This document shows, piece by piece, positions 24,697-28,636 of a DNA stretch of 64,000 bases. Both the position numbers and the translations under genes were made by a program. The DNA lies in the NCBI GenBank assembly GCA_965250285.1, contig OZ252299.1:1600001-1664000 (forward strand). Direction: 5' to 3'. Each line of letters starts with the position of its first letter. The first letter of the stretch is position 1. The stretch is from Myxococcota bacterium. GTDB lineage: Bacteria; Myxococcota_A; UBA9160; UBA4427. The notes beneath the pieces are model-generated. The model ran no database searches, was not told the DNA's origin, and saw nothing but the letters and a program-made list of their open reading frames with translations.

Positions 24697-26535
24697 ATGC
24701 CGAAAGCGCGCGTACTCGCCGTCGACGATCAGCGCTACTTCCGCGAGCTGATCGAGGGGCTCCTCTGCGAGGAGGGCTACGAGGTCCAGACGGCCTCGAG
24801 TGGCGAAGAAGCCCTCCACATCCTCGAGCGTGAAGACTTCGACATCGTGCTGACCGACCTCGTGATGCCGGGCATCGACGGCAGCGAGCTGGTCGCCCGG
24901 ATCAAGGAGCGCATCCCCGACCAGGAGATCGTGATGGTCACGGGCGTGGTCGACGTCAAGACCGCGGTCGAGGCGATGAAGCAGGGGGCGACCGACTACA
25001 TCCTGAAGCCGTTCGAGCGTCCGACGCTCGTGCGCAGCCTCGAGAAGATCCTGCAGCGCCGCCGGCTGCGCGATGAGCACGAGCGGCTGATGGCCGAGAA
25101 CCTCGAGTACATGAGCGTGCTCTCGCTCTATGAGCGCGCCACGGCTCTATTTTCGACGCTCAGCCTCGAGCCGTTGGCCGAGCGTCTCATCGAAGGGCTC
25201 TGCCTCGAGACCCGCGCCCAGAGCGGCGTGCTCTGGATCGCCCGAGACCAGGGCGCCCGCGCGCTCGGCCTCGCGGCGGCCCGCGGCTTGATTCGGGTCG
25301 AGGAGGAAGCCGAGCAGCTCGAGGCGAACGAGCTCGTGCAGGTGCACCGACCCATCGCCGACGGCGAGCGCTCGTTCGTGGCGCCCGTCGAGCACGGCGG
25401 CCATGTGCACGAGGCGCTCTACGTGCCGCTGCGCCGGGGCGCGGAGATCCTCGGGCTGGCGCGACTCTCCGACAAGCTCGACGGTGCGTCGTTCAACGAC
25501 CGCGACCGCGCCGCCGCCGAGAAGTTCGTCGACTTCGGCAGCCAGGCCCTCGAGAACGCCCTGCGATTCCACGGCCTCGAGCGCCGTTCTTTCCGCGACC
25601 CAACGACCCGGGCCTACACGCGGGCCTACTTCGAGGACGTGGTCCGCAACGAGATCCAGAAGGCTGGCCGCTTCGGCCACCGCTTCTCGATGATCCACGT
25701 GCAGCTCGACGGCCTTGCCGAGGCGCGTCGTTCGCAGAGCGAGACCGACTTCTCGGCCTGGCTCGCCGAGCTGGCGCAGTCGGTCGGTAGCGCCCTGCGC
25801 TCGACCGATCTGCTCGCGACCCTCGACATCGATCGCACCGCGATCCTGTTGCCCGAGACCGATGGGCTCGGGGCGGCGGTGCTCAAGCAGCGCGTCCGCG
25901 AGGTCGTCGACGAGAGCGAGATGCTGAGCCGCGCGGGCGGCGGCGAAGCGCCGCGGCTCGTGCTCGCGACCGCCACGTATCCGACCGACGGCACCCAGCT
26001 CGACGCCCTCGATCGCACCCTCGAAGAACGCCTGGCCGAGGGGCGGGAGAGCCGTGTCGTGTCCGATCCGGGTGACGGTCGCCCGCTCGCCGCCGCGCTC
26101 GACCTCGTCGTGCGCGAGGGCGAGAAGCTGCCGCTCGCGTCGGGCCCGCGGATCACCCGCTTTCTGCTCGAAGAGATCGCGCGTCGACCGCGCGACCGCG
26201 GCCTCGTCTTCCTGTCGCCCGGCGAGGGGCTGATGCCCGCGGTGCACGCCGGGCTGCAGCACCTCGATGGCCAGGAGGTGCGCTCGGAGCTCGTGCTGGT
26301 CGGCGAGAAGGATCACGGCGCCGACTGGGATCTGCCGCTCACGTGGGTGACGCCCGGACGGCTCGAGACCGACCGCGCGTTCGTCCTGCACTACGGCGAC
26401 GGTCCGGCGTATGCGCTCGTCTCGGATGTGCAGGCCGGGCAAAGCGCCGCGATCCGCCACACCGCGGATCGGCACCTCGTCGAGCACCTGGTCTTCCAGC
26501 TTCAGCGGGATCTCGGTATCCCGCTCGGCGTGTAG
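24697..26535 (+). CDS. Response regulator: REC - coiled coil - GAF - degenerate GGDEF - unknown C-terminal domain
   Basis: REC (VDD, TDLVMPGIDG, DYILKP); GAF (LYVPLRRG..F.DRD); GGDEF fold RDPTTRAYTR...LRSTDLLATLDIDRTAILLP with the active site lost. Confidence 0.8.
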   Translation: MPKARVLAVDDQRYFRELIEGLLCEEGYEVQTASSGEEALHILEREDFDIVLTDLVMPGIDGSELVARIKERIPDQEIVMVTGVVDVKTAVEAMKQGATDYILKPFERPTLVRSLEKILQRRRLRDEHERLMAENLEYMSVLSLYERATALFSTLSLEPLAERLIEGLCLETRAQSGVLWIARDQGARALGLAAARGLIRVEEEAEQLEANELVQVHRPIADGERSFVAPVEHGGHVHEALYVPLRRGAEILGLARLSDKLDGASFNDRDRAAAEKFVDFGSQALENALRFHGLERRSFRDPTTRAYTRAYFEDVVRNEIQKAGRFGHRFSMIHVQLDGLAEARRSQSETDFSAWLAELAQSVGSALRSTDLLATLDIDRTAILLPETDGLGAAVLKQRVREVVDESEMLSRAGGGEAPRLVLATATYPTDGTQLDALDRTLEERLAEGRESRVVSDPGDGRPLAAALDLVVREGEKLPLASGPRITRFLLEEIARRPRDRGLVFLSPGEGLMPAVHAGLQHLDGQEVRSELVLVGEKDHGADWDLPLTWVTPGRLETDRAFVLHYGDGPAYALVSDVQAGQSAAIRHTADRHLVEHLVFQLQRDLGIPLGV

Positions 26536-26544
26536 GAGCGGCTC

Positions 26545-28146
26545 ATGCCGACCCAGGGCGAAGACTCGACGGACACCATGGAGCTGGAGGCGCCGCGCCT
26601 CGTCCTCGTCGCCGATGGCAACGCCGGGCGTGCCCAGCGGGTGGCGGCCGAGTGCGAGCTCGCGGGCTACGAATGGAAGATCGCCGCGCACGGCGCCCAG
26701 GCCCTCGAGATCGCACTCGCGACCAAGCCCGACCTCGTCGTGGCCGAGATCGACCTGCCGCTGGTCGATGCGTTCAAGCTCGCCGAGATCATGCGCGCCA
26801 ACCCGCGCACGCGCACCGCGCGCTTCCTGCTGATCGGCGAGCCCGAGAGTCAGCGCGCCTTGCTCGGCGTAGGCGACCGTACGATCGAGCCGACTCGCAC
26901 GCCGCACGAGATCGCCGAGGCCGTGACCGAGATGTTCGTCCATCAACGGCGGCTCGAGCTGCTCGAAGAGGCGGGTCCGTCGGGCGAGGTGACAGAGGGC
27001 GCGCTCGAGCAGCTCTCCCTGGCCGATCTGCTGCAGAGCTTCATGATGCAGCGCCGCAACGGCGCGCTCTTCCTCGACCGCACCGACGACCACGAGCGCC
27101 GCCACCGTGCACGCCTGCTGATTCGCGACGGCGAGGTGCTCCAGGCCGAGGTCGGTCGCGTCGACGGGGAGAAGGCGCTGTTCCGACTGATGGGCTGGCG
27201 CAGCGGTCGCTTCCGGTTCGAGCCGGGCGCGCGCGCCGAGACGCCGACGATCCTCGCGCCCACGCGCCGACTGCTCGTCGAGGGCCTGCGACAGCTCGAG
27301 GAGTGGGATCGGCTCTCGCTCCAGCTGCCGCCGCTCGATGCGCCGGTGAAGCTCGCGGTGAAGAGCGCCGATCTGCCGAACATCGTGCACCCGCTGACGC
27401 AGGAGGTGCTGCTGCTGCTCGAGGATCACACGGTCGTGCGCGACGTCGTCGACCACAGCGTGTTCCCCGACTACCAGGTGCTGCGCACGCTCCACACGCT
27501 GAGCGAGCGCGGCATCATCGAGCTGCAGCGGGCGCCGGCCAAGGAGCCGGAGCGCACGCATCCCCTCGACCGCCTCTTCAACGAGAGTCAGGCTCGCCGG
27601 CTGCGCGACTGGCTGCTCGAGGCGGCGATGCGCGGCGGCGATCTGCCCGACGCGAAGCTTTTGGTGCTGGGCTCGAGTCCCGAGGCCGTGCCCGAGTTCG
27701 TACGCCTGGTCGCCAACGTGCCGGGGGTCGAGCTCTCGCGGGCGAGCCTCGAGGGCCGCGATGTTTCGAGCGAGATCGTCACGCTGGGCCGGCTCGCGGT
27801 CGACGACGAGCTCGGGATCGAGTTGGTCCACGTGCCCTCGGGCGCGGCCTGGGCGCCGCTGTGGCCCGTCGCCGGCCACGGTGCGCTCGGCGCTCTGTTC
27901 CTGCTGACCGGCGCGTTGGCCGAGGCGGCCGCTCGGGTCGAGCCGGCTGCCGAAGCGCTCAAGCGCCGGCCGCGGGCCCGCACGTTCCACGTCGCGCTGC
28001 TTGGCAAGGACGAGCGACTCGCCCCGGACGAGTTGCGCGAGAACCTCTCGCTCCTCGACGAGGCGAGCCTGTTCCTGCTGCCGGTCGAGAGCGGCAAGTC
28101 GCCGGCGTCGCTGATGCGCAGTCTCTTCGCGCGGGTGATGCCGTGA
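26545..28146 (+). CDS. Pseudo-receiver - DUF4388 - degenerate small-GTPase-like protein
   Basis: REC with Glu at the phospho-site (PDLVVAEIDLP); DUF4388-like EGALEQLSLADLLQ...GEKALFRLMGWRSGRFRF; C-terminal GTPase-like fold lacking the P-loop. Confidence 0.7.
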   Translation: MPTQGEDSTDTMELEAPRLVLVADGNAGRAQRVAAECELAGYEWKIAAHGAQALEIALATKPDLVVAEIDLPLVDAFKLAEIMRANPRTRTARFLLIGEPESQRALLGVGDRTIEPTRTPHEIAEAVTEMFVHQRRLELLEEAGPSGEVTEGALEQLSLADLLQSFMMQRRNGALFLDRTDDHERRHRARLLIRDGEVLQAEVGRVDGEKALFRLMGWRSGRFRFEPGARAETPTILAPTRRLLVEGLRQLEEWDRLSLQLPPLDAPVKLAVKSADLPNIVHPLTQEVLLLLEDHTVVRDVVDHSVFPDYQVLRTLHTLSERGIIELQRAPAKEPERTHPLDRLFNESQARRLRDWLLEAAMRGGDLPDAKLLVLGSSPEAVPEFVRLVANVPGVELSRASLEGRDVSSEIVTLGRLAVDDELGIELVHVPSGAAWAPLWPVAGHGALGALFLLTGALAEAAARVEPAAEALKRRPRARTFHVALLGKDERLAPDELRENLSLLDEASLFLLPVESGKSPASLMRSLFARVMP

Positions 28147-28210
28147 GCGCGGCGGCGGGGCGAACCGAGCAGAGCGCGACCGCCGAGTCGGTGCGCGCGA
28201 GGGGGATCGC

Positions 28211-28636
28211 GTGAACGCGGCCGATCTCAAGTCGATCGATCTGCTCGCCGAACTCGGTGACGATGACCGCGATGCGCTGGCCGAGCTGCTCGAGGAGCAG
28301 ACGGTGGCGCAGGGTCGGCGCCTGTTCAGCGAGGGCGAAGAGAGCGAAGACCTCGTGCTGGTGCTCGAGGGGCGCGTGCGACTCGAGCTGCGCGGGGGGG
28401 ACGCGCTGGGAGAGTTGCCCGCAGGCTCGACTCTCGGCGGCATCTCACTCGTCTGCTTCGGGAAGCGGGGCGCGGCCGCCTACGCCGAAGCGCCGTGTCG
28501 TGTCGCGCGGCTGGATCGTTCGGGCTATCGGCGACTGGCCGACGACTACCCACGGACGGCCTGTCGGCTGATCGAAGCGCTCTTCAAGCAGCTGGCGGAC
28601 GACGTCCGAGAGTCGCTCGAAGACGCGACCCTCTGA
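28211..28636 (+). CDS. Stand-alone cyclic nucleotide-binding domain protein
   Basis: [33 protein letters not shown]...RGAAAYA; no HTH. Confidence 0.8.

Follow-up and report, generated by a model that had tools for sequence, protein, structure and literature searches.

What can a cluster of largely degenerate signalling domains contribute to a cell? The question is raised by a 64,000-nucleotide (nt) stretch from a Myxococcota bacterium (contig OZ252299.1, positions 1,600,001 to 1,664,000; hereafter the window), in which three open reading frames (ORFs) on the forward strand sit between miaB, ending at 24651, and guaB-guaA-dnaE. Gene 1 (24697..26535, 612 amino acids, aa) encodes a receiver (REC) domain, a coiled helix, a GAF domain, a GGDEF domain with a dead active site (A-site) and an intact inhibitory site (I-site), and a C-terminal alpha/beta domain. 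Gene 2 (26545..28146, 533 aa) combines a pseudo-REC, a DUF4388/PATAN domain, a winged-helix-like domain and a Ras-fold pseudo-GTPase, and the accessory gene 3 (28211..28636, 141 aa) is a lone cyclic mononucleotide (cNMP)-binding fold with an altered phosphate-binding cassette. An earlier interpretation from the sequence alone (the sequence-only reading) had treated the three as one signalling unit; its coordinates and domain orders hold against the ORF list and Pfam, and the genes and their degenerate domains are real, whereas the conserved unit is the gene 1-gene 2 pair.

We consider it fairly probable that this conserved pair encodes an enzyme-less adaptor gated by cyclic di-GMP (c-di-GMP), in which protein 1 reads the nucleotide and acts through protein 2. 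The observations behind it are the domain anatomy, the loss of motifs, a near-invariant I-site, the joint presence and absence of the two genes, the independence of gene 3 and guaBA, and the orthology of gene 1 to MXAN_5053 of Myxococcus xanthus.

Joint inheritance of genes 1 and 2

Loci were fetched around the best matches and around guaB of genomes without a match, excluding nine stretches cut by contig ends. The 59 scorable loci of the window's class comprise 38 with all three genes (the window, which also has all three, is excluded from this count), 8 with genes 1 and 2 only, 2 with gene 3 only and 11 with none; gene 1 or gene 2 was never found singly. The two genes are thus together in 46/59 loci and both missing from 13/59. 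Where none of the three is present, miaB adjoins guaB (11 loci), and one locus (L175:7597-7866) retains a 74-codon deletion scar, a short ORF in which the beginning of gene 1 and a fragment of its GAF helix are fused to the last part of gene 2; gene 3 is undamaged there. The coding sequences are tightly packed, gene 2 starting 9 nt past the gene 1 stop in the window and the gap not exceeding 20 nt in 47 of the 50 loci (starts chosen by script). Beyond the class, the two genes neighbour each other in all 12 readable loci, and dapF precedes the pair in 13 of 13 stretches; no gene 3, miaB, guaB or mglA was found in the stretches fetched there.

At the level of genomes, the C-terminus of gene 2 was matched in 47 of 58 class genomes and, among the 243 sampled from the rest of the phylum, in 1. 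With a broader profile of gene 1, full matches to the GGDEF and C-terminal domains were obtained in 11 of these 243, 9 of the 11 being themselves in the profile and just seven candidates being scored per genome. A scan of genome contigs returned one locus; of the 79 loci that the metagenome scan gave, two held a full or long orthologue. None of the three window genes scored above a family cut-off in NCBIfam. Genes 1 and 2 likely work as one signalling unit; their co-occurrence in relatives, the lack of which would have counted against the sequence-only reading, was found, and the locus did not turn out to be a fully characterised operon.

Some loci depart from the common layout. In L073:6925-7680 (genome G262), counted among the 8 two-gene loci, gene 2 lacks its receiver and PATAN parts and stands beside a lengthened gene 1, and in G239 gene 1 occurs in two copies on separate contigs (L086/L087). 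In one family outside the class (L075, L081 and L082), gene 2 is followed on its 3' side by an isopropylmalate-dehydrogenase-like gene and then by a large protein with a receiver/DUF4388-like match. L074, titled uncultured Spirochaetaceae bacterium, looks like a mislabel, since it is a 4835-base contig identical to L025 from a same-family genome. ORFs on the other strand or in alternative frames (for example 25147-28443 minus and 26343-28214 plus) were taken as shadows of the high GC content, the relatives conserving the frames of the three genes.

The GGDEF domain of gene 1 and its counterpart in Myxococcus xanthus

Pfam assigns to gene 1 a REC (residues 6-115), a GAF (157-285) and a weak GGDEF domain (299-448, E 5e-10); the latter superposes on 6D9M with a Z of 21.0 and a root mean square deviation (rmsd) of 2.0 over 151 aligned residues. 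In the register of an alignment to the GGDEF domain of 6D9M, the predicted c-di-GMP I-site (25798..25893) consists of R368-x-x-D371 (25798-25809) and R399 (25891-25893), the sequence RSTD occupying the place of RxxD five residues ahead of the A-site, as in the RxxD...GGDEF of 6D9M. At the A-site itself (residues 377-381, 25825-25839), DIDRT stands in place of GGDEF. To follow these positions across the family, 498 homologues were pooled and 412 that span the GGDEF and C-terminal domains were kept, 86 fragments or partial matches being dropped; this is a ranked sample enriched in close relatives and Myxococcaceae. R368 is present in 412/412, D371 in 411/412 and R399 in 400/412 (Arg or Lys in 410/412), with all three in 399/412, and the I-site residues are far better conserved than the surrounding sequence. 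A canonical A-site occurs in 0/412, and its residues vary freely.

Judged by its motifs, gene 1 is not an active diguanylate cyclase, the GG(D/E)EF active site being absent. A GGDEF fold with a dead A-site and a kept I-site is what SgmT, PopA and other non-catalytic c-di-GMP receptors show in their sequences, and the protein likely binds c-di-GMP at this site. The sequence-only reading had described the GGDEF as lacking an active site, which is right as far as catalysis goes; the domain is only half degenerate, and the I-site, which was overlooked, is its best conserved feature. Candidate suppliers of c-di-GMP are at hand, as this genome has at least 10 strong GGDEF matches (counted by domain match).

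A second input may enter through the receiver (24697..25056), for which phosphorylation is predicted, D10, D11, D54, T82 and K104 all being present. Within the class, the acidic pocket, phospho-Asp, Thr/Ser and Lys are found at motif level (D54 in 44/46, K104 in 45/46), and among 340 full-length homologues D54 is kept in 316 and K104 in 324; outside the class, D54 occurs in just 2 of 9 sequences. Because D54 is near-general in the class and so rare outside it, the I-site appears to be the constant input and phosphorylation the variable one. Some homologues have no receiver domain at all (e.g. P0188, 472 aa). The family may also reach beyond the myxobacteria, since one full-length homologue, P0212 (627 aa), is annotated from Desulfuromonas sp.

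AlphaFold2 models, built from alignments of 42 (gene 1) and 44 (gene 2) relatives, were confident within each domain (mean predicted local distance difference test, pLDDT, 88.8 and 90.3, respectively) and added two domains to the earlier list: in gene 2, a small helix-helix-helix-strand element that separates DUF4388 from the C-terminal fold, and a 160-residue alpha/beta domain at the C-terminus of gene 1 (about residues 452-612, 26050..26532). The latter is folded with confidence in the model, no Pfam family or PDB sequence matches it consistently (Pfam: none in 42 members), and whole-protein fold searches of gene 1 returned lists filled by REC and GGDEF. With a profile of the domain, 256 of 1.84 billion representatives were matched at E 0.001. 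Its top match in the Atlas, a DICT cluster at 0.77, is a lead only and makes the domain possibly DICT-like; identity with DICT (PF10069) was not confirmed: a 149-homologue profile met the single DICT protein in 151 genomes at E 1.9 and hhalign gave 9.7, below shuffles, in a plausible alignment register. CHASE6_C, sought as a comparison, was found in 0 of 21 genomes.

From a divergent homologue, the family could be traced through the Myxococcaceae to ABF86166.1 of M. xanthus DK1622 (616 aa), which is 31% identical to gene 1 over nearly its whole length (E 3e-69); searched against this genome, ABF86166.1 finds gene 1 as its best and sole full-length match. MXAN5053 is tabulated as REC-GAF-GGDEF with the motifs RDSD (I-site intact) and SDQEF (A-site dead) in the supplement of PMC3509222; both motifs are present in ABF86166.1, whose 616 aa compare with 617 codons for MXAN5053. 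By full-length homology, best match and the same state of I-site and A-site in the sequences, gene 1 is the orthologue of MXAN_5053. One locus outside the class (L090) has the order dapF-gene 1-gene 2 with a gene 1 that is 48% identical to a Myxococcaceae orthologue. The gene after MXAN_5053 is presumably MXAN_5052, which we take to be its partner. In the window's class, the pair lies between miaB and guaB, together with the cNMP gene, and not behind dapF.

MXAN_5053 itself is a known, uncharacterised gene. According to the accessible text of PMC4686200, four of the six inactive GGDEF proteins of M. xanthus may be c-di-GMP receptors, and the motif table of PMC3509222 would make MXAN5053 one of these four; it was once a bioinformatic candidate substrate of DifE, which was not favoured (PMC4671073, as far as its available parts go). 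The accessible portions of the papers searched contain no C-terminal domain, partner gene or binding test for MXAN5053. No mention of MXAN_5052 was found in the literature searched, most subscription papers, figures and bioRxiv supplements lying beyond its reach, and the supplements of PMC7156744 and PMC11255338 hold no relevant entry. Myxobacterial readout of c-di-GMP is understood only in part, and among the predicted receptors MXAN_5053 lacks an assigned role; what is new here is the assignment of gene 1 to MXAN_5053 with its published phenotype, the PATAN protein with a dead Ras fold as a likely dedicated partner, the two-gene core, and its separation from guaBA. Since the pair spans uncultured lineages and a tractable model in which a gene 1 deletion strain exists, binding, complex formation and localisation are testable at once.

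The use of a non-catalytic GGDEF domain as a receptor has parallels in PopA of Caulobacter, SgmT of M. xanthus and CdgA of Bdellovibrio, all of which exert their effect through where they localise and which proteins they contact. In PopA and SgmT the site used is an intact I-site, and SgmT binds c-di-GMP through R-x-x-D and a downstream Arg and is localised by the nucleotide (accessible text of PMC3509222), while CdgA takes part, alongside RomR and an MglA partner, in a hub at the cell pole (PMC3983030, seen in part). In contrast to these proteins, gene 1 has a single REC, a GAF domain, an extra C-terminal domain and a dedicated PATAN/pseudo-GTPase partner gene; unlike SgmT, it has no kinase domain. 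PopA carries a second receiver, which gene 1 lacks. Gene 1 would work like receptors of this type and is the orthologue of none of them.

Gene 2 and the route of the signal

All three modules that had been named for gene 2, a pseudo-REC, a DUF4388 and a pseudo-GTPase, are borne out by Pfam, a Rab5 profile and Foldseek; the winged-helix-like domain between the last two had been passed over. The REC match in Pfam is weak, with Glu68 at the position of the phospho-Asp, and the pairing of a phospho-Asp at the end of strand 3 with a Thr/Ser at the end of strand 4 is absent. Position 68 is mostly P/Q/A/E in the class (Asp in 3/44) and Asp in 5 of 9 sequences outside it; of the two RECs in the window, only the first looks phosphorylatable, as the sequence-only reading had it. 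The DUF4388 domain (residues 151-254) scores 72 bits against PF14332, for a cut-off of 25, and is the same domain as PATAN. At the C-terminus, a Ras/MglA-like fold (27577..28143) matches a Rab5 profile (E 1e-4) and, in Foldseek, Rab structures (E ~1e-5, TM-score 0.6 on the target, rmsd ~5); ATP_bind_1, Arf and MglA clusters resemble it at 0.81-0.82 in the Atlas, a lead only. P-loop, DxxG and NKxD motifs are missing from the window's protein, and among 55 aligned homologues G1 was kept in 0, G3 in 1 and G4 in 0. Since these motifs are gone while the Ras fold is kept, the domain appears by sequence to be a pseudo-GTPase; it is further shortened in other classes. ATP_bind_1 GTPases were sought in 41 relatives, but every match was short or weak and none could serve for comparison.

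Gene 2 shares its DUF4388/PATAN domain and receiver with PatA-type regulators (PixE, PixG, PilG and LsiR of Synechocystis, SgnC of M. xanthus), whose output is by protein contact; in Synechocystis, the PATAN domain is the output domain and binds PilB1 and PilC, and such PilB/PilC binding is known for Synechocystis proteins only (bioRxiv 2021.06.11.447907, available in part). In contrast to these regulators, the receiver of gene 2 is N-terminal, lacks the phospho-Asp in the class and has a winged helix and then a Ras-fold pseudo-GTPase behind it. With small GTPases of the MglA/CvnD family it shares the Ras fold, which in gene 2 is, unlike in these, fused and devoid of G1, G3 and G4 motifs. A PATAN protein with a dead Ras-fold domain was not found described in the literature searched, beyond whose reach interaction or proteomic data may exist.

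The adaptor that we favour would therefore be a chain of contacts. Protein 1 would bind c-di-GMP at its I-site, and the nucleotide might dimerise or relocate it, by analogy with PopA and SgmT; phosphorylation of the receiver would be a second, optional input, the receiver being degenerate in some classes. Protein 2 would be the dedicated partner that relays the signal by protein contacts, with the PATAN domain as the likely output and the dead GTPase fold as a surface for docking. Least certain is what the pair acts on, the most likely target being the machinery of the type IV pilus or of polarity, and the role may be modulating or redundant, as the phenotype of the MXAN5053 deletion described below argues. 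Binding of c-di-GMP, formation of a complex and the identity of the target are thus the steps that we infer. A receptor or scaffold with protein-protein output, as in the sequence-only reading, fits this picture, the ligand being narrowed to c-di-GMP at the gene 1 I-site; binding of GTP by gene 2 and canonical binding of cAMP or cGMP by gene 3, also envisaged there, are unlikely because the motifs are lost.

Several points weigh against this adaptor. Joint inheritance of adjacent genes can come from single deletions that take both, the loci come from related genomes and their counts are not independent events, and 11 of the 58 class genomes do not have the pair. No kinase gene was seen in the loci read, and an I-site motif does not equal a binding measurement. 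In M. xanthus, screens covered all 24 c-di-GMP genes (PMC4686200, PMC4877007): motility was defective in sgmT, dmxA and tmoK mutants, the MXAN5053 deletion leaving growth, gliding and pilus motility intact (PMC4686200), and development was defective in sgmT, tmoK, dmxB and pmxA mutants, the MXAN5053 deletion again being unaffected (PMC4877007). We place it among the unaffected strains because it is in both mutant sets and is not named among the defective ones in the accessible parts of these papers. Since this deletion shows no defect, a role in motility is at most subtle, redundant or conditional, and the absent phenotype limits how central the pair is likely to be.

A bolder version of the adaptor, which we regard as conceivable and unlikely, places the pair in cell polarity: the c-di-GMP read by the dead cyclase would control a pseudo-GTPase scaffold, which would dock on an MglA-family GTPase or imitate one, and the PATAN domain would connect this scaffold to the type IV pilus motor. 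The GTPase would here be an orphan MglA paralogue 9 kb upstream (15053..15706, forward strand), a possible partner with G1, G3 and G4 intact and 45% identity to the canonical MglA of the genome, whose gene lies with mglB near genome position 662,000. If true, this would be a direct link from c-di-GMP to small-GTPase control of polarity. The paralogue presumably resembles SofG. It lies in a class-wide meaB-mglA-ribBA block, the same block as the cassette, and is kept in most class genomes, and PATAN genes have been noted near some MglA genes (PMC4316618, seen in part). The link to MglA that had been proposed from proximity gains from co-distribution, the paralogue accompanying gene 2 in 45 of the 47 class genomes that have this gene and occurring in 3 of the 11 that do not; it loses from the kinship of these genomes, which are not independent, and from the 13 stretches outside the class, in which no mglA was found. 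Half of the double losses of gene 2 and the paralogue (4/8) fall in one genus; the paralogue remains in L169, L175, L177 and L178, where the pair is lost, and is missing in L183 and L184, where the pair is kept. The co-distribution is a hint, not a link.

The sequence-only reading had seen no DNA-binding output, which is not secure because gene 1 has an extra 160-aa domain and gene 2 a winged-helix-like domain (about residues 265-330, 27337..27534). A transcriptional output, with protein 1 as a c-di-GMP receptor regulating a protein 2 that binds DNA by its winged helix, is nevertheless improbable. Residues 265-330 are well conserved (57% mean column identity) and match TrmB and MarR_2 in Pfam, as well as IclR, and a protein that combines a receiver with a winged helix, encoded next to Group 3 MglA genes, has been proposed as a transcription regulator (available text of PMC4316618). 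These matches are all weak, however, being found in at most 7 of 28 homologues (TrmB 7/28, MarR_2 7/28, best E 5e-4) and reaching E 0.08 against a MarR structure, the two invariant residues of the region are both aspartates, and DNA binding by PatA-type PATAN regulators was judged unlikely in the part of bioRxiv 2021.06.11.447907 that is accessible.

Gene 3, the choice of ligand and the guaBA neighbourhood

That the three proteins form a single complex integrating phosphorylation, c-di-GMP and a cyclic mononucleotide, as the sequence-only reading had it, is likewise improbable. All three genes stand together in the window and in most class loci, a 4-nt overlap joins the gene 3 start to the gene 2 stop in 36 of 40 loci (starts again chosen by script), and its cassette keeps Gly76 in 39/39 and Arg86 in 38/39 sequences. 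Against this, 8 loci have lost gene 3 by itself, 2 have retained gene 3 only, and 12 of 12 loci outside the class do not have it; because its gains and losses are independent of the pair, a fixed three-gene unit is rejected and a three-protein complex is not supported. In the window's class, it is an accessory passenger and not a fixed member. Pfam recognises it as cNMP_binding, and the cassette is altered as had been noted: the Glu after Gly is gone (0/39), and the residue following the Arg is itself Glu in 32/39. Canonical binding of cAMP or cGMP, for which Glu and Arg are both expected, is doubtful on this pattern.

It is quite unlikely that the I-site is kept for another ligand, such as 3',3'-cyclic GMP-AMP (cGAMP), or for structure, the pair then being a ligand-independent scaffold. 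The nearest solved GGDEF by sequence is the Geobacter domain of 6D9M, which we take to be the cGAMP synthase GacA; the rank of the nearest structure reflects ancestry, however, and not ligand. Mutants in the I-site of SgmT had no motility or fruiting phenotype (PMC3509222, in its available parts). In gene 1, the three residues match the described spacing of the c-di-GMP site and are conserved far above their surroundings in the 412 proteins.

A promoter-like site of the sigma-70 type (TTGACC, 16 nt, TATCCT; 28731..28758, forward strand) lies between gene 3 and guaB. Such sites, with at least 9/12 matches within 260 nt 5' of guaB, were found in 46 of 60 loci, cassette-less loci included, against 0.9 expected from shuffles, and the form TTGACC-17-TAnnnT is strongly conserved there (L021-L073, L169-L182); none was found upstream of gene 1 (0/49), gene 2 (0/49) or guaA (0/58). 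Since guaB carries this site of its own with or without the cassette, guaBA is separate from it. The cassette is an insert in a housekeeping block and, judging from these sequences, is probably transcribed from upstream together with miaB. That it senses or regulates guanine-nucleotide supply with guaBA is barely credible, for although it lies directly 5' of guaB throughout the class wherever the contig reaches, guaB has its own promoter-like site, miaB abuts guaB in the 11 cassette-less loci, and the pair follows dapF, with no guaB, in the 13 stretches outside the class. A functional tie to guaBA, one of two options left by the sequence-only reading, thus falls away, and the other, simple synteny, held.

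The same block holds further genes. Between coxE and miaB (20059-22637) lie an SGNH/AlgX-like gene and, on the opposite strand, a nucleotide pyrophosphatase/phosphodiesterase gene, which was not seen in related loci and has its own promoter-like site at 22923-22896. Upstream of these, a MoxR/CoxD-type AAA ATPase and a CoxE-type VWA protein (17632-20042), with no obvious client enzyme adjacent, form a pair that is fixed in the block at 55-82% identity across the class.

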